From positions 1 through 29,957 of IMG/VR virus record IMGVR_UViG_3300030372_004506: DNA of 29,957 nucleotides, one strand, 5' to 3'. Under the pieces are notes generated by a model. The model had not been told where the DNA came from. It ran no database searches and saw nothing but the letters and a program-made list of their open reading frames with translations. Numbering within the stretch: position 1 is the first letter of the stretch; every line of letters begins with the position of its first letter. The stretch comes from a virus. Taxonomy: Duplodnaviria; Caudoviricetes. Position numbers and translations under genes: made by a program. This document shows positions 42 to 9,679 of this stretch, piece after piece.

Positions 42-419
42 TTATCTCTTCCCTTCTCTCGTCTTGTCTATCAGTATTCTCTCTGCTCTGGTGAGTTGTC
101 TTCCTTCTTTCTTCGCTTGTATTGTCAATCGACGAGCGAGCATGTCTGCTTGCTCCTGTCGTCGTCGTTGCTGCTTTCGTTTTTTTCGCAGTCTGTCTGC
201 TGCTAGTATTGCTGCTCTCTCGATTGCAACCTGCTCTGCTGTCTTGCCAGGCTGCTCTCGTATCGTCTCTGTTTTGATCCTGAGCTCGTTCTCCGAGAAC
301 ATACGAAAGGCTGCTGCTGTCGCTCTGTTCTTCGGTAGTCCTTGCATCCGGAGCTCCGTGACCTTGTCTGCTATCGCTCTGTTCTCGCTCTGTGTTCTGT
401 TGCGTCTCGCTCTCGACAT
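42..419 (-). CDS. Arg/Lys-rich hypothetical protein (125 aa, MSRARRNR...)
   Basis: ATG at 419 is coupled (TAATG) to the upstream small ORF; the longer 569 start in the ORF track lies within the promoter. Confidence 0.65.
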   Translation of the reverse strand: MSRARRNRTQSENRAIADKVTELRMQGLPKNRATAAAFRMFSENELRIKTETIREQPGKTAEQVAIERAAILAADRLRKKRKQQRRRQEQADMLARRLTIQAKKEGRQLTRAERILIDKTREGKR

Positions 420-535
420 TACTTCTTTTTCTTCTTGTTGGTTGCTGTTCTGCTTCCTCTTTTCGGTTTCGATGGTTTCGGACGAGGCTTCGACATGACT
501 GATCTTATGGTCTTTCTTGTGTTCTTTTTTCGCAT
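419..535 (-). CDS. Small, extremely basic peptide (38 aa, MRKKNTRKTIRSVMSKPRPKPSKPKRGSRTATNKKKKK)
   Basis: Translated by hand (below the ORF-track cutoff); GGGAG RBS upstream; TAATG overlap with the next gene; directly downstream of a promoter. Confidence 0.6.
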   Translation of the reverse strand: MRKKNTRKTIRSVMSKPRPKPSKPKRGSRTATNKKKKK

Positions 536-558
536 GTTTTCTCCCTGTTTTGTATGTT

Positions 559-587
559 ATTATACTCATATTGTATCATATCTGCAA
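559..587 (-). promoter_or_regulatory. sigma70-type promoter TTGCAG-N17-TATAAT
   Basis: Read on the minus strand; points to the left end and, after circularisation, into terS. Confidence 0.6.
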
Positions 588-602
588 AGAATAGGAGCTT
601 TT

Positions 603-968
603 ATGCCAAAGTATCGAGTCCCTGGTACCGTCTCAAGAATAGCACGTCGAGCGATAGATTATAACCTCAGTCTCCCAATGAGCAGACGAGCAGCGTACAA
701 GGACGAAGGAGGGAAGAGAGTCCCAGGGACAGGGATGAGAACAGCAAGCCGGCTCGCGTCTGGATCTATAGATGAGGAACAAATGATACTGATGAGAGCA
801 TGGTTCGCTCGTCACGGAGAGAGCGAGAAGGAAGCAGAAGCACGAAAGGACAAGACCAGTAAGGCTGCGATTGCCTGGTCTCTGTGGGGAGGGAATCCGG
901 GGAGACGATTCGTCTCTGCGAAGCTGCGGCAACTCGAGAGAGAAAAGAAGAAGAGCCGAGAGGATTAG
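603..968 (+). CDS. Basic phage protein with the 'AWFARH...IAWSLWGG' motif (head-morphogenesis-associated domain)
   Basis: AGGAG RBS before ATG 603; motif recalled from domains appended to phage portal/prohead protease proteins. Confidence 0.7.
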   Translation: MPKYRVPGTVSRIARRAIDYNLSLPMSRRAAYKDEGGKRVPGTGMRTASRLASGSIDEEQMILMRAWFARHGESEKEAEARKDKTSKAAIAWSLWGGNPGRRFVSAKLRQLEREKKKSRED

Positions 969-995
969 TCTCGGCTCCTTGGTTGCTGTTCTGGA

Positions 996-1247
996 TTATC
1001 TCTCGTTATGCTCTATTCTTATAGACCATTCTTTGTTTTTTTCGTTCTTGTATTTTATCATTAGAGCGCAGACATATTCTTTTGATACGTCGATAGCGTC
1101 TTCCCAATCTATTAAGGGATCAGAGTGCATATAGTCGTCTATCAGGGTATTGATTAAAGTCTCATATTCATAGATAACGACTTTTTTTTCTTTATCTATG
1201 GATATGATCGCTCTGTCACATAATAATCTCGGTTCCAAATAAATCAT
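996..1247 (-). CDS. Hypothetical protein
   Basis: AT-rich ORF; ATG at 1247 is coupled (TGATG) to the upstream 25-aa ORF. Confidence 0.6.
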   Translation of the reverse strand: MIYLEPRLLCDRAIISIDKEKKVVIYEYETLINTLIDDYMHSDPLIDWEDAIDVSKEYVCALMIKYKNEKNKEWSIRIEHNER

Positions 1248-1324
1248 CACGATTTAATTCTAAAAGAATGAACTGGCAACTCTCGTCCCTTTCTGTGTGG
1301 CTTGTATTGTTGATTGATTGGCAT
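1247..1324 (-). CDS. Small hypothetical peptide (25 aa, MPINQQYKPHRKGRELPVHSFRIKS)
   Basis: AAGGA upstream; stop overlaps the next start. Confidence 0.35.
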   Translation of the reverse strand: MPINQQYKPHRKGRELPVHSFRIKS

Positions 1325-1345
1325 TTTTCTTTTCCTTGTTTTTGG

Positions 1346-1375
1346 GGTTGCGCCCCTTTCGGGGCTTTGTTGGTT
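1346..1375. repeat. 30-bp intergenic hairpin repeat (GCCCC-TTTC-GGGGC core), copy 1
   Basis: 28/30 identical to 3269-3298. Confidence 0.8.
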
Positions 1376-1583
1376 AATCGACTACAATGAGCCACTTGTC
1401 TTTTAAGTCTTTGAGGTTTTCGAATCCTAGAGTATCATCGTTTGATCCGGAATATACCCACAATTCAATGTATCCGTCGGAGTATTGCTGTGTGTATCTT
1501 ACTTCTACCCACCTTCCTGTCTCTTTGTTCTCTAGTATTTTGGAGCATACTGATTTAATTGTCGTTATCTTTTTTGTTTCCAT
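1374..1583 (-). CDS. Hypothetical protein
   Basis: 69-aa ORF preceded by a GGAAACAACATCATG start motif. Confidence 0.7.
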   Translation of the reverse strand: METKKITTIKSVCSKILENKETGRWVEVRYTQQYSDGYIELWVYSGSNDDTLGFENLKDLKDKWLIVVD

Positions 1584-1615
1584 GATGTTGTTTCCATGAT
1601 GTTGTTGTTTTGTGG

Positions 1616-1876
1616 TTATTGCAGATCTCTTATTTCTTCTAATTCGCTAATTGCATTTGTTAATTTTTCAACGCCCCATCCATATTTATGTTCTAAGATC
1701 CGAAGTTCACATGTAGCAGGATGTTTATCGAGTAAATCGTTGAAACCTTCATTATTGACATCTAATTCTGGCAAAATTTCGACGACAGTATCAATAGCTT
1801 GTTCTATTTTTTTCTGCTTCATTTTGAAGGTTTCTAATTGTTGCTTAAGTGTATTTATCATTGTTTCGGTATTCAT
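1616..1876 (-). CDS. Hypothetical protein
   Basis: 86-aa ORF with a GGAGACAACATCATG start, downstream of a consensus promoter. Confidence 0.75.
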   Translation of the reverse strand: MNTETMINTLKQQLETFKMKQKKIEQAIDTVVEILPELDVNNEGFNDLLDKHPATCELRILEHKYGWGVEKLTNAISELEEIRDLQ

Positions 1877-1929
1877 GATGTTGTCTCCTTGTCTGTCGAG
1901 TTTGGGTTATTTTGTTTCCGACATGTACT

Positions 1930-1959
1930 ATTATACTCCGATTGTTTTCAGGTTGTCAA
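1930..1959 (-). promoter_or_regulatory. Consensus sigma70 promoter TTGACA-N18-TATAAT with an A/T-rich upstream tract
   Basis: Perfect hexamers; A/T tracts at 1960-1986 resemble an UP element. Confidence 0.8.
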
Positions 1960-2026
1960 CAATTCTTTTTAAGGTAATTAAAAAAACGCCATCCGGTATA
2001 TCGGAAATCGCGATAATGATGTGAAT

Positions 2027-2224
2027 TTATTTTTCCTCCTCGCTGCTTTCGCTCTCTGTCTCCTCTTCTTCTGCCAGAAGATCGATCATAATCTCTATCA
2101 GTTCGACATATATCTCTATCAGTTCCACTTTCTTGAGATCGACGATACCCTGGTCATGTTGTCGATTGAGCGAGAGAGACAGAGCCTGTAATCGTTTCGT
2201 GAGATGGTATAGGTCGCTCTTCAT
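2027..2224 (-). CDS. Hypothetical protein with an acidic C-terminus
   Basis: 65-aa ORF, GAGGAG RBS. Confidence 0.65.
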   Translation of the reverse strand: MKSDLYHLTKRLQALSLSLNRQHDQGIVDLKKVELIEIYVELIEIMIDLLAEEEETESESSEEEK

Positions 2225-2303
2225 GTCTGCTCCTCTGTCGATGGTTCATTCTACCCGATAGATCTCAATCGATACTATATTTTTGGAGACGATTGTGAAC
2301 CAT

Positions 2304-2334
2304 AAAAAAAGACACCTTCGAGAAGAAGATGTCT
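2304..2334 (-). terminator. Rho-independent terminator
   Basis: AGACATCTTC-TTCTC-GAAGGTGTCT stem followed by a T-run on the minus strand. Confidence 0.7.
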
Positions 2335-2364
2335 GTCGTCAGAGATATATCTCTATATAATCAG

Positions 2365-2463
2365 CTATTCGTCATCGTCAAGATCATCGATATCCATAAT
2401 GACAGGAATAGCAAAAGCAGAGAGAGCCGTGAGAGCCAGAGCAAAGAGATTATACAGTATCAT
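2365..2463 (-). CDS. Small membrane peptide (32 aa, MILYNLFALALTALSAFAIPVIMDIDDLDDDE)
   Basis: ATGA-coupled to the upstream gene; hydrophobic segment plus acidic tail; followed by a terminator. Confidence 0.55.
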   Translation of the reverse strand: MILYNLFALALTALSAFAIPVIMDIDDLDDDE

Positions 2464-2723
2464 GTCTGCTCCAGTAGTTCGGAAGTGATAACCTTCCCGT
2501 ATCTTTGGATCAGAAGACGCTTTGATCTCTCGTCTCCTTCGTTCGCTTTGTTGACGAGATACTGTACGTCGATCATCGTCAGGAGCTCCAGTCTCCCGCG
2601 CAATACCTCGATCATCTCGACGAGAGCGACCTGTCGTCCCTTGTCCTCTGTCTGCTTCAGTCTCTCGACCAGGAAGGAGATGATCCCCTCGATCTTCTCT
2701 GCTGTGTTTTTTGTTGTTGTCAT
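2460..2723 (-). CDS. Hypothetical protein
   Basis: 87-aa ORF, GGAGACTACATCATG start. Confidence 0.75.
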   Translation of the reverse strand: MTTTKNTAEKIEGIISFLVERLKQTEDKGRQVALVEMIEVLRGRLELLTMIDVQYLVNKANEGDERSKRLLIQRYGKVITSELLEQT

Positions 2724-2756
2724 GATGTAGTCTCCTGTGTTGTTGTTGTTGGGTTG

Positions 2757-3257
2757 TTATACCAGTCCGTATTCTTCGAACAGGTCTTTAATTTCATTGA
2801 GAGATTTTCTCCCGAAGTTCTTCAGTCTGAGCAGTCCCTCGTCTCCTTCGGACTGTACTCGAATATAAACATCTTCGAGATAGTCGAAGCCTCCATTCTT
2901 GAGACAATTTTCAGTCCGGACCGAGAGCTCACAGTCTTCGATTCTGTGGATCTTTCCATCTTTAGATTGTGATAGTCTCTCGATTTTCTTTTGGTTGTCT
3001 TCTGTGATGACAAAATGATTATTCTCCCACTTGCTGATCGTCTCTCTGGCTACTCCGATCTTCTCTGCAAATTCCTGCTGTGTGAGACCCAGTCTCTCTC
3101 TGGTGGCTTTCACTTCGTTTCTTTTGTCGATATGCTCGATGATCTCTGCGTCTTCGACGTTGTCGATCTCCATGAGCAAGAAGTCGAGAAGATTGTCCGA
3201 AGTGTCTGTGATTACTTGTCTCATTCCTGAGTGATATTGTATGAATAATGTTTTCAT
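2757..3257 (-). CDS. XRE-family HTH protein fused to an RNA polymerase alpha-subunit C-terminal domain
   Basis: HTH: RERLGLTQQEFAEKIGVARETISKWEN; alphaCTD: IEDCELSVRTENCLK...LLRLKNFGRKSLNEIKDLF. Confidence 0.88.
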   Translation of the reverse strand: MKTLFIQYHSGMRQVITDTSDNLLDFLLMEIDNVEDAEIIEHIDKRNEVKATRERLGLTQQEFAEKIGVARETISKWENNHFVITEDNQKKIERLSQSKDGKIHRIEDCELSVRTENCLKNGGFDYLEDVYIRVQSEGDEGLLRLKNFGRKSLNEIKDLFEEYGLV

Positions 3258-3268
3258 GTTGTCTCCTT

Positions 3269-3298
3269 GGTTGTGCCCCTTTCGGGGCTGTGTTGGTT
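3269..3298. repeat. 30-bp intergenic hairpin repeat, copy 2
   Basis: 28/30 identical to 1346-1375; immediately upstream of the HTH-alphaCTD RBS. Confidence 0.8.
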
Positions 3299-3299
3299 G

Positions 3300-3569
3300 T
3301 TATTTGGCTTCGTTGAGTGTTCTCATAAGAATCGTGTGAGGGTTATTGTTCCATGATCTCCAGTCTGCGAGAGAATACAGTTTCGATCCGTCCTTCATTT
3401 GCACAATGATTCTTTTAATTGTCTTGTTTCCTCTGGTGACGTTGACCCAGTATGCTTTTTTCATAATGTTATTGAGTCCCCCTTCATATCCTTTGAAAGG
3501 ATGAGCTGCTTCTCTCTGCATTGTTTGGAAACCGCGAAGTGTCAATGTGTATTTGTATTGTGATCTCAT
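3300..3569 (-). CDS. Hypothetical protein
   Basis: GGAGAAAACATCATG start at 3569 (MRSQY...). Confidence 0.7.
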   Translation of the reverse strand: MRSQYKYTLTLRGFQTMQREAAHPFKGYEGGLNNIMKKAYWVNVTRGNKTIKRIIVQMKDGSKLYSLADWRSWNNNPHTILMRTLNEAK

Positions 3570-3639
3570 GATGTTTTCTCCTTGTGTCGTTGTCATCATG
3601 TAAACAGGTTATAGGATATGTTTTCATAGTGCAACCATT

Positions 3640-3902
3640 TTCTACACTTTTTCTGTACTTTTTCGTAGAAAGTCCAAAAAGTCCACCCTTTGACCAGCAT
3701 GTTGGCCAGCAAAATAACAAGGTTCTACCTAGCTTTTCCTCTGTTTTACTATATAATTGGACTTTTTCTATAAACTTTATAAAAAGGGGTAATTATAAAA
3801 GTTATAAGAAAGTCCACGGACTTAGTGGACGCAATAAAAAAACCCCGTATATCACGAGGTTTTTGTCTGTTTCATTGCTGGTCAAACTGTGGACGCGTCC
3901 AA
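3640..3902. other. Putative replication origin
   Basis: Non-coding AT-rich core with AAAGTCCA/GTCCAC repeats in both orientations, bracketed by a 19-bp inverted repeat, directly downstream of the primase and helicase genes. Confidence 0.6.
3836..3864. terminator. Bidirectional rho-independent terminator downstream of the helicase gene
   Basis: AAAAAAACCCCGT-ATATC-ACGAGGTTTTT. Confidence 0.6.
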
Positions 3903-5207
3903 TTATGACGGCCACCATCCCCGGAGACGCTTCGATGCATTCTCGTGTTTTTTCCGACGAGCATAGACAAAATTATTCGACAGCAGGATGTCTGAGATAA
4001 TCGCTTGATTCTGTCTCGTACTCTTGTCGAGATGCTTTATAGAGTATCTTGTCGGGTCTGGGTCTTTGTATATATGCTCCAATATCTGAGACACTGTATA
4101 AGGAGGAGAGAGAAGAGACACAGCATCCAACACAGCATCCTCGAGAGGATGGGGATCCGTAAAGTCAGCAGCAGACGAGACGCGCAGCTGCTCCTCTTCG
4201 TCTGTGAGATAATGCTGCTCTCCTGCTTCGTAGTGATACAGAACCTCGGACCATATGAGATCGAGATCCTGTCTCAGTTTGCATATGTCTATCTTCTTGC
4301 GTCCCAGGTCCACACACCAGAAGCGACGAGATCCGGATGCATCATTCAGGACATTCTTCTTGTTCGTTGTCGCACAGAAAATCGTCTTCCGCGCGAATTT
4401 CTGATAGCTTCTCTTGTACGGGAGACGAACATCATCGTAGTCTCGAGACAGGAATGCTTTCTCGACTCTGACATCCTTCGTCCTCTTCGCTAGTTCTTGT
4501 AGCTCATAGATTGCTTTCCCTTGAATAGCCTGCACACTCTCCCGATAGTTATCCATAGAGAGCTCACTGTCTCCGAAGTACTGACCGGATAGCACACTCG
4601 AGAAGCACAGACAGCGCAGAGCGGTACTCTTTCCGATTCCTTGTCCTCCATACAGAACGAGCATCGCGTCTGCTTTGATCGGCTTGCGTACTGTGGCATA
4701 TGTGCGAGCAGCGACAGAGATCAACCATCGGAGAGAGTATGCTTTGTTTATGGGCGTGTCTTCTGCTCCGAAGTAGTCGATCAGCAGTCTCTCTGCTCTT
4801 GGCTCGTCTCCCGGCTTCCACTTTCCTCTGATGCTATCAAAATAATCATGTATCGGATTCTTCTTGTTCTCCTTGGCTACGATCTCGACAGCAGCGAAGA
4901 TGTCGTCTTTCTTGAAATTGACAGACCATCGATCCTGACAGACATATCGGATCATATCGACATCGTGATCAGTGATCTCTCCCCAGTCTCCGACAGCGTC
5001 TTCCCATCGGACAGACTCCGCAAAAGAGTCATAGTACGATCGACCCTTGAAGACAGGATGATGTCTCAGCAGCTGCGTGATGTTGTACAGAGACGCGAGA
5101 ACCTTGTCTCCTGAGTCTGATCTCCGGATCCGGATGTCGAATCCCATATTCGTTAGTATCTCGATTCGTGCGCTCGTTGTGCTGTGTAGTTGTTGTGTGT
5201 TGCTCAT
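3903..5207 (-). CDS. VapE (virulence-associated E)-like P-loop ATPase / replicative helicase
   Basis: Walker A GGQGIGKST, ELQEL, 'CATTN...LNDASGSRRFW' motifs; GGAGACAACATG start at 5207. Confidence 0.88.
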   Translation of the reverse strand: MSNTQQLHSTTSARIEILTNMGFDIRIRRSDSGDKVLASLYNITQLLRHHPVFKGRSYYDSFAESVRWEDAVGDWGEITDHDVDMIRYVCQDRWSVNFKKDDIFAAVEIVAKENKKNPIHDYFDSIRGKWKPGDEPRAERLLIDYFGAEDTPINKAYSLRWLISVAARTYATVRKPIKADAMLVLYGGQGIGKSTALRCLCFSSVLSGQYFGDSELSMDNYRESVQAIQGKAIYELQELAKRTKDVRVEKAFLSRDYDDVRLPYKRSYQKFARKTIFCATTNKKNVLNDASGSRRFWCVDLGRKKIDICKLRQDLDLIWSEVLYHYEAGEQHYLTDEEEQLRVSSAADFTDPHPLEDAVLDAVSLLSPPYTVSQILEHIYKDPDPTRYSIKHLDKSTRQNQAIISDILLSNNFVYARRKKHENASKRLRGWWPS

Positions 5208-5215
5208 GTTGTCTC

Positions 5216-6151
5216 CTATAGGTATCCGTTTATTTCTGCCAAGTATCCGAGGCTTTTCCGAAAGCCACATGACGATCTGTGCATGCAATACGCTAGACTG
5301 CTGCTCTTGTTATTGTCCTTGCGTATCGGGTCGATAAAGAAGAATGTACAGTCATTTAGATGACATTGAGGACAAGTCCAGCCCGTAGCTCGTTCTCCTG
5401 CGTCTCCGTGTTTCATCGTCGATCCCAGGAAGACAGCGAGCTTTCTTCTCTCTATTGGACATTCGGATAGCTGCTGATACTTCATCCGTCTATTATCCGA
5501 GTAGCTTCTGTTCTGTCCGAGTTGCTGCTCCTTCTTCCGGAGCTCTTCGAGACGCTGCTCTCTCTCTGCTTCGATACGTCTGCGCTCTGCGAGATAGTCT
5601 CTCTTTGCATCCTGTGCCATTCCTGCCCAGTCGAGAAGCTTCCCTCTGATGTGATTCTCTTTGAAGTATTGCGTCCTGTATCCGACAAAATACGCTCGGC
5701 TTGCATCTTTTGCGCTCTCGTCGAACTTCGGACCCCGGAAGATCATGTCCCAATATTTTTTCACTGCCATATGATAGAACATCCAATCCTCCGCAGGAGC
5801 GTCTTCCGCGAGAGGAATGACGAGACGAAACCTGTCCTCGGTCCAGGGATTGTGCGATACACTGGTGTGTAAATATGCTTTAATTCTGTGAAGATACATA
5901 GCCACAGACACAGAGAAGAAGAGGACATCATGATCGACATCGATGACGATACAGGACAAGGAGACGACATTCTCTGCGGATCTCTTTCCATCAAAGACAG
6001 CAGGAGACCAGCATCCCTGCTTGAGCTTCTCTACTGGTTTTCTGTCTGCTCCGAGGAAGCGACAGAGATTCGTCCAAGAATAAGATCGTCTAATTTGTTT
6101 GTGGGGGTTGAGTATGCTCGGAAAAGCGGTTATATTGTATAGGCGTGACAT
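5216..6151 (-). CDS. AEP-superfamily primase with a C-terminal zinc-binding domain
   Basis: IDVD, HTSVSH and RFRLVIPL motifs; CPQC...C..H..C; adjacent to the VapE helicase. Confidence 0.75.
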   Translation of the reverse strand: MSRLYNITAFPSILNPHKQIRRSYSWTNLCRFLGADRKPVEKLKQGCWSPAVFDGKRSAENVVSLSCIVIDVDHDVLFFSVSVAMYLHRIKAYLHTSVSHNPWTEDRFRLVIPLAEDAPAEDWMFYHMAVKKYWDMIFRGPKFDESAKDASRAYFVGYRTQYFKENHIRGKLLDWAGMAQDAKRDYLAERRRIEAEREQRLEELRKKEQQLGQNRSYSDNRRMKYQQLSECPIERRKLAVFLGSTMKHGDAGERATGWTCPQCHLNDCTFFFIDPIRKDNNKSSSLAYCMHRSSCGFRKSLGYLAEINGYL

Positions 6152-6200
6152 GTTGTTTATCCTCGTGTCATGTTATTGTGTTGTAAAGATTTTCCTTGTG

Positions 6201-6238
6201 TACCCTGCTTTGTTCGTATCAGAGCAGGGTATTTTTTT
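6201..6238 (+). terminator. Hairpin plus T-run oriented as a plus-strand terminator
   Basis: TACCCTGCTTTG...CAGAGCAGGGTA followed by TTTTTTT. Confidence 0.5.
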
Positions 6239-6617
6239 ATATTGTTGTGTAGATCGGTGCGTTCTGGATCATGAGCTCGATCGATGGTCCCTCATCGGAT
6301 GAGGCATAGAATTTGTCTGCGACGATCTTGACGACTCTGCAATCGTCATCGATGGGAAGAGCATCAAGAACAGACTTTACCAGGTTATCGAGATCGGGTC
6401 TCTTGTCGTGATACTCTCGTTCGCCGGCTCCGAGACGCTTCGGTCTGTGAATTACGAATGTAATCTCTACCATGATCGGACCATCAGGGACATATACATC
6501 CGACAGTCTCTCCTTCATCTCTTTCACCCACTCGCGATATTTCACTGGATAATAAACCCTTCCCGCTCGTGTCACTCTGGGACGAGGACATGCTACGGGA
6601 GCAATCTCGATTATCAT
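6237..6617 (-). CDS. rusA: RusA-like Holliday junction resolvase
   Basis: PRPRV N-terminus; catalytic motif RPDLDNLVKSVLDAL...DDCRV. Confidence 0.88.
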   Translation of the reverse strand: MIIEIAPVACPRPRVTRAGRVYYPVKYREWVKEMKERLSDVYVPDGPIMVEITFVIHRPKRLGAGEREYHDKRPDLDNLVKSVLDALPIDDDCRVVKIVADKFYASSDEGPSIELMIQNAPIYTTI

Positions 6618-6892
6618 ACTCTCTCCTGTGTTGCTTTGTCAAGGACAGCAGAGACATGTCCGCATATCGTTTTAAAATACCATCCCTGACAATTGCATGT
6701 AGCAAAGTCATATCGCGGATGATCTGGATAGATATAGACGATCGTGACATACTGTCCTCCCGATGAGGAGCGAGTAACAGCCACAGAGACCCGACAGTCC
6801 CGTCCTGAGATTGTCTGCTCCTTCTGAGACATACAGACGATCTCAGTCTGTCGTCCTTTGCGCTTGACATGATCGGATCGTACTGGGATCAT
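6614..6892 (-). CDS. SWIM zinc-finger protein
   Basis: ATCNCQGWYFKTICGHV = CxC-x(8)-CxH; ATGA-coupled on both sides. Confidence 0.75.
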   Translation of the reverse strand: MIPVRSDHVKRKGRQTEIVCMSQKEQTISGRDCRVSVAVTRSSSGGQYVTIVYIYPDHPRYDFATCNCQGWYFKTICGHVSAVLDKATQERV

Positions 6893-7260
6893 TCTGTCTC
6901 CTTCTTCTTGTTTTCTTCATTCTTAAAGTTTCTCCATCCTTCCGAGTATGCATGCTCGAGATCACTCAAGATCAACACAGAAGAGATCCCTGTAATTGTA
7001 GCAAAATATCTCGATATGTGTCTGTGTACTTGTCTCCCAGGAGGAGCACCATGTCTCCAATGAGAGATACTTGACAGTGAATAATCAACATAAGCAGCCA
7101 TCTCCTTTCTATTCCACTTCCCGCGAGACAGAGAGATATACAGAACAAAGAAGTTCTTGATCTCTGGGAACCTCTTATTTGTATTTCTGCATCCTTTCGT
7201 CTTCTCCTTCTTTGGTGGAACCTTGGGAAGAAGATCCGGATTGAATTGTCTACGCTTCAT
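6889..7260 (-). CDS. HTH DNA-binding protein
   Basis: RKEMAAYVDYSLSSISHWRHG HTH-like segment; GGAGG RBS before ATG 7260. Confidence 0.65.
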   Translation of the reverse strand: MKRRQFNPDLLPKVPPKKEKTKGCRNTNKRFPEIKNFFVLYISLSRGKWNRKEMAAYVDYSLSSISHWRHGAPPGRQVHRHISRYFATITGISSVLILSDLEHAYSEGWRNFKNEENKKKETE

Positions 7261-7528
7261 GATTCCTCCATTCGGAGACATGACATCTCCACAAGATCTC
7301 TCGAAGCAGAGCAGACTTGTTATCGATATCTCTCTTCTCGAGAGCGTCTGCGATACGGACCTTCAATCGGCAGGTCGGAAGACGCTGTCCGGATCTCCAC
7401 AGAGAGACCGTCGATCGATTGACATCGATCTCTCTTGCTAGTTGGGATGAACTTATTTTGTATGTGTTAAGCGTCTCGCTTAACCATTCCGAGAAGTCGA
7501 TCTCCTCTGTTGTGACATAATCTGTCAT
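7250..7528 (-). CDS. XRE-family HTH transcriptional regulator
   Basis: SSSQLAREIDVNRSTVSLWRSGQRLP. Confidence 0.85.
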   Translation of the reverse strand: MTDYVTTEEIDFSEWLSETLNTYKISSSQLAREIDVNRSTVSLWRSGQRLPTCRLKVRIADALEKRDIDNKSALLREILWRCHVSEWRNHEA

Positions 7529-7541
7529 TGTGTCTCCTGGG

Positions 7542-8039
7542 TTAGATAGATTGTAAGTATGAGAGTCTCATCGCGACTACATCTCTATTGAAGTCGAAGA
7601 TCTCTGCGACTTGATAGATCTTCTTCTTTGTAATTTTTCGTGCATTGAAAAGATCGAGCATTGCTCCATAATGTTGATACTTGCCAGGCTCGACTCCTTT
7701 TGGAGTAATCGCGGACTCTGTCCAACATTTAAAAATCCATGCAATGATATTAGATGCGTCTGCTTTCTTGACCTTCTTTGGATCGATGTCATAACCGTCT
7801 TCTGTGTATGTTACAAAATCGTGCTCTTCCATAATAGGAGCTTCTGTCGCTGTCTCTGCTTTCTTGAGATAGCCGTCTCTGTCTGCTTCCTCTTGTTCGA
7901 TCTCTGAGACGAGACGATCTGTATCGACATATCGGTGATGACGAAGACTTCTTATCGCTGCGAGATCTGCTTTCAATTCGTCGATTCGTTGTTGACAAAA
8001 TTTGGCATATTCGAGATATTGTTGTCTTGTGTGTTGCAT
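7542..8039 (-). CDS. Hypothetical protein, first gene of the replication operon
   Basis: 165-aa ORF, AGGAGACAATACCATG start directly after a promoter. Confidence 0.8.
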   Translation of the reverse strand: MQHTRQQYLEYAKFCQQRIDELKADLAAIRSLRHHRYVDTDRLVSEIEQEEADRDGYLKKAETATEAPIMEEHDFVTYTEDGYDIDPKKVKKADASNIIAWIFKCWTESAITPKGVEPGKYQHYGAMLDLFNARKITKKKIYQVAEIFDFNRDVVAMRLSYLQSI

Positions 8040-8073
8040 GGTATTGTCTCCTTGTTGTATTGAATACTTAGTC

Positions 8074-8103
8074 AGTATAACCCGAGTGTTGTCGGGTTGT
8101 CAA
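8074..8103 (-). promoter_or_regulatory. sigma70 promoter TTGACA-N18-TATACT containing the operator palindrome AACCCGA-N6-TCGGGTT
   Basis: Hexamers read directly; perfect 7-bp inverted repeat at 8079-8098. Confidence 0.8.
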
Positions 8104-8122
8104 CAAAATAAGGAAAAATAAT

Positions 8123-8713
8123 ATGAGCGAGATAAAATGCTTTGTCGATATAGAGACTACAGGACTGAATCCAGAGATACACGAGATCATAGAGATATGT
8201 ATTATTCGATGTGTAGAGGGTTTTCCTCCTCTGGTCTGGGTAGAGAAATTGTCTCCCCAACGTCTGGACCTAGCAGACCCGAGAGCTCTCGATATAAACC
8301 GCTTCTCTATCAAGGAGTGGTACGAAGCGAAAGAGCAGGAGGAGGCTGCTCGGATGATCTCCGAACTGACAAAAGACGCGATTCTGATCGGTCATAACAT
8401 CCGATTCGATGAGTCCTTTATCTCAGAGCTACTCCATCAGCATGGAGTGAAAGCATTATATAAGCGCAGACTGATCGATACAATCACTCTCGCTCATGAG
8501 CACATCCCGCATATCGGATCTTTGTCTCTCGAGAACATCAGAGAATACTATAATTGGAACCTAGAAGGAGCGCACAGAGCGAAGAAGGACGCTCTCGACT
8601 GTATGCGCTTGTATCATCGTCTGTATCGTTGCTCTGTGTTCTCTCGCTCGTTCTGGCGTATCGCTCATGAGGTTCGCGGACTGGTAAAAATAATCAAGAG
8701 GTTTTGTAAGTAA
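8123..8713 (+). CDS. DEDDh 3'-5' exonuclease (DnaQ-like)
   Basis: DIETTG, GHNIRFD, IDT and HRAKKDA motifs. Confidence 0.92.
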   Translation: MSEIKCFVDIETTGLNPEIHEIIEICIIRCVEGFPPLVWVEKLSPQRLDLADPRALDINRFSIKEWYEAKEQEEAARMISELTKDAILIGHNIRFDESFISELLHQHGVKALYKRRLIDTITLAHEHIPHIGSLSLENIREYYNWNLEGAHRAKKDALDCMRLYHRLYRCSVFSRSFWRIAHEVRGLVKIIKRFCK

Positions 8714-9074: not shown

Positions 9075-9679
9075 TCCTCCTCCATAGGGTCCGCTTCGAT
9101 GAGCGTGTATGAGAATGAATCGTATCCGATACCGACCTGTAACTGTGCGAGACCGATCAGACGAGAGAAGTCCGCAGGGTTTTGTATCACTTGACATCCT
9201 GCCGAATAGTAGCGAGTAGAGTCGACCAATTTGCTCTTGTGGGCTCTGTGGATGTTGATACCGAACATCCCTGTGTCTTCCTCGAGATAGTCTGTCTGAT
9301 TATTTAAATTATTGTCCCTATAGACGGTTACTTCTGCGTTTCTCTGACACAAAGCTAAGTACGAGCCTCTATGCATGTCAAGCTTCCATGCTCCTCTATA
9401 TTGTCCAGGCTTGAGGACTGCGACTCCTTTGCTGTTGCCGGGATTGAGATGCTGCTCGAGAGATGCGTCTGTCGTGCAGACATAACGCTCTTCAATCCAT
9501 TCTCCTCTGTCTTTGTACACGCAATGAAACATATCATCGAATCTCCCTGGCGTGCGAGACGGGGATCGGACTCCGATCAGGTTCAAGTCATAATCTTTAT
9601 TTGTGAAAATCTTGTATCCCATCGACTCGACACGTCGCAAAATAGGAGGCATGACTTTCTTCCAATTGTTAATTATCAT
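9056..9679 (-). CDS. Putative endolysin with an L,D-transpeptidase (YkuD)-like catalytic motif
   Basis: GINIHRA-x(11)-YSAGCQV His/Cys motif; located between tail genes and the holin. Confidence 0.7.
   Translation of the reverse strand: MIINNWKKVMPPILRRVESMGYKIFTNKDYDLNLIGVRSPSRTPGRFDDMFHCVYKDRGEWIEERYVCTTDASLEQHLNPGNSKGVAVLKPGQYRGAWKLDMHRGSYLALCQRNAEVTVYRDNNLNNQTDYLEEDTGMFGINIHRAHKSKLVDSTRYYSAGCQVIQNPADFSRLIGLAQLQVGIGYDSFSYTLIEADPMEEEWIKRL

Follow-up and report, generated by a model that had tools for sequence, protein, structure and literature searches.

An XRE helix-turn-helix joined to an RNA polymerase alpha C-terminal domain in a marine phage: a candidate competitor for UP elements

Introduction

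Why would a phage encode the RNA polymerase alpha subunit's C-terminal domain (alphaCTD) joined to a helix-turn-helix (HTH)? The question is raised by a gene at 2757..3257 (minus strand) of a 29,957-base virus record, the whole of which is the window analyzed here. Its product, P0001, has 166 aa, and an initial annotation suggested that it might activate phage promoters, occlude UP elements, or titrate host activators or NusA as a decoy. Phages are known to act on alphaCTD by other means: T4 Alt and ModA ADP-ribosylate it (PMC2988021), alpha is acetylated and cleaved by phage, with phiKMV Rac as an example (PMC7552054; PMC7824862, section 3.4.4), and Staphylococcus phage G1 gp67 binds sigma4 and keeps the host alphaCTD off UP elements (PMC3694059). 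An alphaCTD mimic is not among the phage factors given in section 3.4.4 of PMC7824862.

The fusion gene and its domains

P0001 is encoded by an intact open reading frame (ORF), one of 40 scanned in the window, with a ribosome-binding site (AGGAG) at 3263-3267. The protein consists of an acidic N-module (residues 1-44; 3126..3257, minus strand), an XRE/Cro-CI-type HTH (residues 45-95; 2973..3125, minus strand), and a short linker followed by an alphaCTD (residues 96-166; 2760..2972, minus strand). The fusion of an XRE HTH to an RpoA alphaCTD proposed in the initial annotation is borne out by Pfam, in which both domains score above the curated cut-offs: RNA_pol_A_CTD (PF03118) matches residues 105-161 (E 9.5e-14, 51.3 bits against a cut-off of 23.8) and HTH_3 (PF01381) matches residues 49-94 (E 7.8e-12, 45.5 bits against a cut-off of 23). 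The short acidic N-domain that had also been described is evident from the 10 D/E and 2 K/R among residues 1-44. The N-module belongs to no known family and elsewhere stands alone; searched alone, neither it nor the alphaCTD matched a PHROG family. TIGR02027, the equivalog model for full-length RpoA, scored 49.8 bits (cut-off 227.8) and matched at model positions 216-293 only, and the alpha N-terminal domain (alphaNTD) families PF01000 and PF01193 were not among the Pfam matches listed for P0001. Because the alphaNTD is absent, P0001 would be unable to join RNA polymerase.

The top sequence match of P0001 in the PDB was a Caulobacter alphaCTD (9zum, E 3.5e-10). An AF2 model built from a 39-row alignment had a mean pLDDT of 80, with values of 91-95 in the alphaCTD blocks and 51-60 in the N-module. 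The predicted C-domain superimposes on 1z3e_B (Z 10.7, 1.3 A over 63 residues), consistent with an alphaCTD fold, and the middle domain matches HigA2, P22 c2, the 434 repressor, and C proteins (Z 8-10); as the model alignment included RpoA fragments, the predicted alphaCTD fold is not fully independent evidence. Foldseek gave the same fold matches for the model, none at E <= 0.001, and the best ESM Atlas scores (0.82 and 0.85) are leads only. A single-sequence AF2 model was discarded (pLDDT 41). A homodimer prediction for two P0001 copies (alignment A5) scored 0.01 (mark 0.42), which speaks neither for nor against dimerization.

The fusion is real, and independent contigs exclude a misassembly. 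Single contigs from runs X2 (2565-3359) and X3 (2640-3353), which belong to one study, cover the gene with 0 differences, and one contig from run X4, which belongs to a separate study, crosses the fusion junction. All three are marine runs distinct from the possible source run of the record. RNA run X20 contained contigs only of a variant N-half, and these are no sign of expression of P0001.

Elsewhere in the window there are genes for a terminase, a portal, a tape-measure protein, tail proteins, a VapE-type helicase, RusA, and an exonuclease; no integrase was found among the 40 ORFs scanned. Two ORFs run against the main direction: an uncharacterized 208-aa ORF at 342-968 (+), with 62-68% matches in loci L006, L007, and L010, and a DEDD exonuclease at 8123-8713 (+), which in L024 and L013 is found close to the alphaCTD gene.

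Surfaces kept and lost in the alphaCTD

We numbered alphaCTD positions as in Salmonella RpoA and took the 265, 261, and 287 determinants as defined in PMC10853779 and PMC1874639. They comprise positions 265, 268, 294, 296, 298, 299, and 302; positions 257-259 and 261; and positions 285-289, 315, 317, and 318, respectively. All seven residues of the 265 determinant are identical in P0001, among them the six UP-surface residues that the initial annotation had named (R114, N117, N147, G149, K151, and S152). In 28 clade members, the DNA face has R265 in 26, N268 in 26, N294 in 22, G296 in 27, K/R298 in 27, S299 in 28, and E302 in 28.

The initial annotation had overlooked that 4 residues are inserted ahead of position 285 and that the protein stops at about alpha 313, with the result that some alphaCTD surfaces are not conserved in P0001. 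The insertion, placed by alignment at ~2856..2867 (minus strand; the position is the aligner's gap placement), lies just before the 285-289 segment and marks the phage clade. After it, G-D-E-G-L replaces T-E-V-E-L, and 315, 317, and 318 are absent, so P0001 lacks the 287 determinant. Clade members have G285 in 28 of 28 cases and G288 in 25, and positions 315, 317, and 318 are gaps in 21, 27, and 27 of them; among the 145 RpoA sequences used for comparison, T/S285 is found in 145, E286 in 145, and G315 in 144.

We also measured retention over the 42 columns that are conserved among 24 Myxococcota RpoA sequences. The mean retention in 24 clade members was 52%, as against 88% for the seven 265 columns and 1% for four 287 columns (permutation p ~0.003 in each case), with p-values that are overstated because of the kinship of the rows, the single truncation behind three of the four 287 columns, and search patterns for several sequences that extended over positions 293-300. 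In the 8 family members that have no insertion, the corresponding values were 68%, 96%, and 19%. By these alignments, the predicted DNA-gripping face is kept in the phage alphaCTD while the 287 activator patch is lost.

The loss of this patch bears on the proposal of a decoy. Titration of activators through the usual 287 patch is not supported, because the patch is both remodeled and cut off in P0001 and its clade. A protein decoy could also work by the R265 face, titrating NusA AR2, those activators that work through the 265 determinant, or the ADP-ribosyltransferases of competing phages. The NusA AR2 contact overlaps the DNA face of alphaCTD. AR2 binds alphaCTD (PMC5842316), the R265 face also binds proteins in the case of some factors (PMC10853779), and Arg265 is the residue modified by T4 Alt and ModA (PMC2988021). 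With the main activator patch gone, however, and with an HTH fusion and AT-rich phage promoters that suit DNA binding better, we consider a decoy of this kind quite improbable.

The 261 determinant is kept in P0001, in which I106, E107, D108, and E110 correspond to positions 257-259 and 261. This raises the alternative that P0001 is an activator: the HTH, bound to an operator, would put the alphaCTD at about -42, where contact between the 261 patch and sigma region 4 (a contact described in PMC1874639 and PMC10853779) would recruit the host holoenzyme. An acidic residue at 258 in 24 of 28 clade members and at 259 in 25 of 28 fits this reading, under which loss of the 287 patch would be costless because the tether is covalent. 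Residue E261 itself, however, is found in only 16 of the 28 and in 2 of the 8 members without the insertion, the majority of the family has no HTH, and the linker is of ~8 residues. Moreover, the candidate promoters described below are already close to consensus, and a free alphaCTD would oust the polymerase's own, which makes the same contact while tethered. We regard activation as unlikely.

Assembly of the fusion

A protein search gave 35 matches among 69 candidates. They include the full fusions (16 distinct sequences in 3 clusters), 8 proteins of 95-115 aa that consist of the N-module and HTH only, 11 proteins in which the same alphaCTD type follows N-termini that are unrelated and for the most part helical, and 13 alphaCTD proteins that are more distant. 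On a crude heptad score, we read the N-terminal helices as "helical, coiled-coil-like." The N-module alone is encoded by genes of 52-53 aa in marine phages (three of five viral loci: L106, L107, and L108).

In 10-residue windows, the HTH-only protein P0005 shares 6-10 identities with P0001 as far as residue 90, and P0196 shares 7-10 with it from residue 101 on, which places the join at about residue 96. Of its last 71 residues, 63-64 are identical to the P0013 cluster, which has a helical N-terminus, and 58-71 to other fusions; between the alphaCTDs of P0001 and the P0013 family, shared states are distributed as a mosaic. An HTH is missing from most of the alphaCTD relatives in the clade, and some proteins consist of the N-module alone or of N-module and HTH. 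We infer from these sequences that the fusion is a late, derived chimera: a 52-aa N-module first acquired an HTH, giving the forms of 95-98 aa, and later, with the join at residue 96, took up an alphaCTD from a sister family. The pairing of XRE HTH and alphaCTD, which had been taken for the evolved core of the protein, would instead be a late add-on, absent from most alphaCTDs of the clade.

The leader of the gene (3263..3288, minus strand; repeat family D7) consists of a GC-rich hairpin at 3275-3288 and the ribosome-binding site. A second copy of the hairpin lies at 1352-1365, and hairpins like it stand in front of the N-module genes of L104-L106 and L108. The order GC-rich hairpin, C/A-rich leader, and ribosome-binding site is found at 1346-1375 and 3269-3298 of the window, before small early genes, and the same hairpin leader is found at 9240 and 9451 in L104, 1658 in L105, 5138 in L106, and 9046 in L108. 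The repeated leader looks like a shared cassette boundary, which could favor the shuffling of genes or shield mRNA ends.

A mosaic of this kind might be close to neutral: the alphaCTD would be a general HhH accessory that binds AT-rich DNA, and its joining to the HTH a side effect of the shuffling of early-region cassettes, with domains that do not cooperate. The junction at residue 96 is sharp, with a mosaic shared with the P0013 family; the same hairpin leader stands before most of the stepwise forms (52, 95-98, and 166 aa), as if the join mainly supplied a leader and a start; and elsewhere alphaCTD is joined to TPR, sigma4, T5orf172, ResIII, and MazG-like domains. The 16 fusions speak against it. 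They vary at up to 13 of 71 alphaCTD positions, yet none departs from the common reading frame, linker length, or residues 66-86 (a stretch containing the recognition helix), and the 265 residues change only by K151R; the fusion is maintained. We give a near-neutral chimera only a small chance. Codon changes between P0001 and L024 are synonymous in 24 cases and non-synonymous in 15, and the contig variants of run X20 have 6 synonymous changes and 3 replacements, every one of the latter in the N-half. These changes are signs of selection.

Free alphaCTDs in the phage family and beyond

All 19 viral loci that we collected encode free alphaCTD proteins (75-221 aa), and none encodes a full RpoA. 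Two genomes, G1215 and G1218, belong to the phage family of the window (portal 59-60%, putative capsid 45-54%), matching 21 and 18 of 38 window genes, respectively. Their alphaCTDs are of types without the insertion and are encoded upstream of RusA, so that the related phages carry alphaCTD in three sequence types (window, G1215, and G1218). In L007, L010, and L013, the alphaCTD gene lies immediately 5' of RusA. No alphaCTD was found in any of five records with an N-module or HTH gene, one of them 92% complete, which indicates that the module is accessory; the most complete of the five, G001, is a more distant phage with an unmatched terminase.

A profile of the clade matched 6,575 representatives, true RpoA included. 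Among 97 of the best 150 matches, together with P0037, the partners of free alphaCTD were TPR, sigma4, T5orf172, ResIII, and RpoB/C, with one HTH_3-sigma4-alphaCTD protein (P0140). Among the proteins searched or scanned, a direct XRE-alphaCTD join without sigma4 is confined to the lineage described here, and the 4-residue insertion to this lineage and sister families; P0040 has G-x-x-G-L-L without the insertion. A sigma4-like HTH precedes alphaCTD in L012, L017, L019, L020, and L023 (by eye) and in P0029 and P0177 (by Pfam). Tandem alphaCTDs stand behind T5orf172-like or ResIII helicase domains (P0039, P0045, P0054; P0041, P0062, P0068), which suggests that they are used in defense or mobile-element proteins. 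A weak alphaCTD match was seen in BREX PglW.

Searches of isolated phages returned 21 records; annotation or context identifies most of them as host rpoA (H3 and H20 were checked). The sole confirmed free alphaCTD among them is gp23 of Ruegeria phage vB_RpoS-V16 (L003 5923-6789, AWY09459.1), which combines alphaCTD with a MazG-like pyrophosphatase and is annotated only as an HTH protein; this culturable roseophage offers a system for testing a phage alphaCTD. A metagenome scan gave mostly true rpoA, with L024 as its only clade member, and scans of viral contigs gave 1 weak partial locus for alphaCTD alone and 0 for P0016 and P0019. With so few loci, the gene context of the family with helical N-termini comes from one short contig, L024. 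The phage alphaCTDs of L008, L011, L015, and L016 are of a separate type on a long branch of their own. This type, which presumably resembles Bacteroidota RpoA, is probably an independent capture.

Relation to known systems

P0001 shares with the alphaCTD of RpoA (PF03118; 1LB2, 3N97, 9ZUM, 1Z3E) its predicted fold and the 265 and 261 determinants, and its alphaCTD is up to 56% identical to the RpoA of one Myxococcota family. It differs from RpoA in having no alphaNTD or long linker, in the 4-residue insertion, the remodeled 287 determinant and missing tail, and in the fused XRE HTH. With XRE/Cro-CI regulators (PF01381; C.Esp1396I, P22 c2, 434 repressor, HigA2) it has the HTH fold and recognition helix in common, but it carries no S24 peptidase or known dimerization domain, and its HTH lies between the N-module and the alphaCTD. 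The likeness to gp67 is limited to the proposed outcome, because the two folded domains of P0001 belong to other families: gp67 is not an alphaCTD, and the block by P0001 would be that of a DNA-bound mimic. T4 Alt and ModA and phiKMV Rac target alphaCTD function, as is proposed here, but they are enzymes, whereas P0001 has no catalytic domain. If the proposal is correct, an alphaCTD mimic would be a fourth route of neutralization, beside ADP-ribosylation, acetylation or cleavage, and a sigma-bound steric block.

The free module itself is shared with several uncharacterized alphaCTD proteins (sigma4-alphaCTD, HTH_3-sigma4-alphaCTD [P0140], TPR-2x alphaCTD, V16 gp23, and the phage protein UniProt A0A6J5M7I6), none of which has the direct XRE-alphaCTD join of P0001. 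A survey of transcription-apparatus domain fusions by Iyer and Aravind, published in 2012 in J Struct Biol, is said to cover this ground and may already mention such fusions. In a literature search that took in few subscription papers, we found no paper describing or characterizing a phage-encoded alphaCTD, and the statement that no characterized phage protein has this architecture holds within that literature. Two myxophage groups are said to carry unspecified "RNA polymerase subunits" (10.64898/2026.09.14.751636), which may bear on novelty. Free alphaCTD fusions are common in databases, phages included; what is new here is a lineage-specific XRE-alphaCTD variant. Its significance is limited in that the type of architecture is not unique, the join to the HTH is recent, and function is deduced from sequence. 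The phage family nevertheless amounts to a natural dissection of alphaCTD, with the DNA face kept, the activator face lost, three sequence types, and several N-terminal partners, and at 166 aa P0001 is small enough to make the role of free alphaCTDs testable.

Host and donor

The initial annotation had taken the RpoA variant as a hint of a delta- or alphaproteobacterial host. The terminase matched in 10 of 401 genomes of Myxococcota, the phylum of G006 (29-36% identity, up to 196 bits), and in none of the 401 Bdellovibrionota or 401 Alphaproteobacteria genomes; the best match in an isolated phage scored 83 bits. The delta-type part of the hint is supported, in the form of Myxococcota, and the alphaproteobacterial part is not. 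Portal and putative capsid were matched in 5 of 5 genomes tested, mostly on the same contigs, and within G006's order 20 of the 151 genomes had a portal match. The window thus probably derives from a marine phage with a Myxococcota host, as judged from these matches, which link a family of uncultured marine phages with a Myxococcota order. The Myxococcota genomes searched are likely mostly MAGs, and binning can assign phage contigs to the wrong MAG. As a guide to the host, the alphaCTD profile score by itself was rejected, as Myxococcota (65-67 bits) could not be separated from Bdellovibrionota (65). Portal homologs with 40-42% identity lie more than 100 kb into two Myxococcota contigs (G1298:C7:111061-112425 and G1291:C110:110328-111623) and are likely to belong to integrated prophages of this phage family.

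Identity between the phage domain and the RpoA CTDs of G006's family is 47-56%, and the GC content of seven rpoA loci of that family is 42-46%, that of the phage 47%. We built a careful tree of 65 rows and 66 columns, from which 5 long or doubtfully labeled RpoA rows and 2 of 15 family loci were excluded. The insertion clade had support of 97/94, all 19 family alphaCTDs fell on one side (80/89), and a split with support of 86/97 separated RpoA of other phyla (with 3 Myxococcota rows) from the phage sequences and the Myxococcota order. A 57-row tree likewise placed the family's 19 rows on one side, and in a quick tree of 106 rows the donor was unplaced and viral alphaCTDs were scattered in at least 4 places, so that there may have been one capture or several. 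The grouping of the phage alphaCTDs with a Myxococcota order, the point on which the initial annotation had proposed a phylogeny against host RpoA, has moderate support, and Myxococcota rpoA is the putative donor.

PF03118 was matched in 294 of 301 Myxococcota genomes surveyed; among the matches listed for these and for 5 portal-bearing genomes, none was an alphaCTD on a portal contig. In a genome of G006's family, a long ORF ends in an additional alphaCTD that does not belong to RpoA (L241; G1254:C126:8842-9009) and has an L-K-L-K-N-F-G-R stretch in common with the phage clade. Three rpoA CTDs with other labels cluster with Myxococcota (L114, labeled Bifidobacterium breve, and L119 and L122, labeled Enterobacterales); that of L114 equals the CTD of G227 over the aligned columns, and the labels or bins of all three look wrong.

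Candidate promoters and a proposed mode of action

Promoter-like sites number 21 in 900-8300 (12.7 expected), the best at 1930, followed by 8074 and 6613. The first (1930..1982, minus strand) is a sigma70-type promoter with 12 of 12 matches, an 18-nt spacer, and a UP-like tract that is 86% AT and scores 10/15; the second (8074..8126, minus strand) is of the same type, with 11 of 12 matches, a palindromic spacer, and a tract that is 82% AT and also scores 10/15. Both promoters named in the initial annotation thus have AT-rich upstream tracts, and both are candidate targets. We took the E. coli UP consensus as the reference for the tract score, and on that consensus 10/15 is reached by ~2% of background; the upstream tracts of 1930 and 8074 are rarer than 0.1% and 0.5%, respectively, of genome 22-mers. 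At 6613 there is no AT-rich UP-like upstream tract. Outside the scored sites, a weak candidate promoter with upstream A-tracts, seen by eye at 3606..3660 (minus strand), could serve the unit 3599 -> 3257 -> 2723, and a terminator-like hairpin lies upstream of it at 3812-3830. In G1215, an AT-tract promoter lies upstream of the alphaCTD operon.

The reading that we favor, although we rate it at somewhat less than an even chance, is that P0001 binds DNA through two heads and competes with host alpha at UP-like tracts rich in AT. P0001 would be an early-region accessory DNA-binding regulator. On the evidence of tree and host, the phage family would have captured the alphaCTD of a Myxococcota rpoA, and the captured domain would still have the surface with which alphaCTD holds the narrow minor groove of AT-rich DNA, minus the 287 activator patch. 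From the XRE HTH would come the affinity and the choice of site that an alphaCTD on its own does not have, allowing the alphaCTD to occupy UP-like tracts and exclude host alpha subunits. UP-dependent promoters would be turned down, either the phage's own early ones at 1930 and 8074, host ones such as those of rRNA, or both, with an outcome like that of T4 ModA and phage G1 gp67, but by mimicry. Occlusion of UP elements by P0001 would mean host take-over or an early-gene switch through mimicry.

Of the outcomes that the initial annotation had put forward, occlusion is the one best matched by the intact DNA face, with its 7 of 7 residues of the 265 determinant, and it still falls a little short of probable. 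Retention of the 265 residues across the clade, together with loss of the 287 patch, supports it, as do the three alphaCTD sequence types of the related phages, the signs of selection, the rare AT tracts at the two strongest promoters, and the precedent of other phages that attack the alphaCTD-UP contact (PMC3694059; PMC2988021). Against it stand the dispensability of the HTH in the clade, the missing alphaCTD in the five N-module/HTH records, and the presence of alphaCTD-like domains as promiscuous accessory modules in unrelated proteins. A search for operators across relatives found no conserved site, and a UP-like promoter was seen upstream of rRNA in 1 of the 6 Myxococcota regions scanned, which also argues against occlusion, as does the point that it would strike the phage's own promoters. 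The acidic 261 residues retained in P0001 are compatible with activation as well. A broader and more doubtful proposal joins the two: marine Myxococcota phages might switch promoters by a streamlined alphaCTD mimic, its XRE head making the replacement of the polymerase's alphaCTD site specific, so as to block UP-dependent promoters or, via the 261 patch, to activate phage promoters independently of host activators.

The promoters at 1930 and 8074 share a 25-base pattern (1938-1962 and 8082-8106, minus strand), both with spacers of 18 nt. The spacer at 8074 is a perfect 6-6-6 inverted repeat, which is partial at 1930. The palindrome is absent at the equivalent promoter of L190, a close relative, and the shared motif is absent in other relatives too; because L190 has no motif and another HTH gene lies in that operon, we do not assign the motif to P0001. 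The inverted repeat at 8074 is a possible operator of this Cro-like HTH gene (7250-7528), whose product is as likely to read it as P0001.
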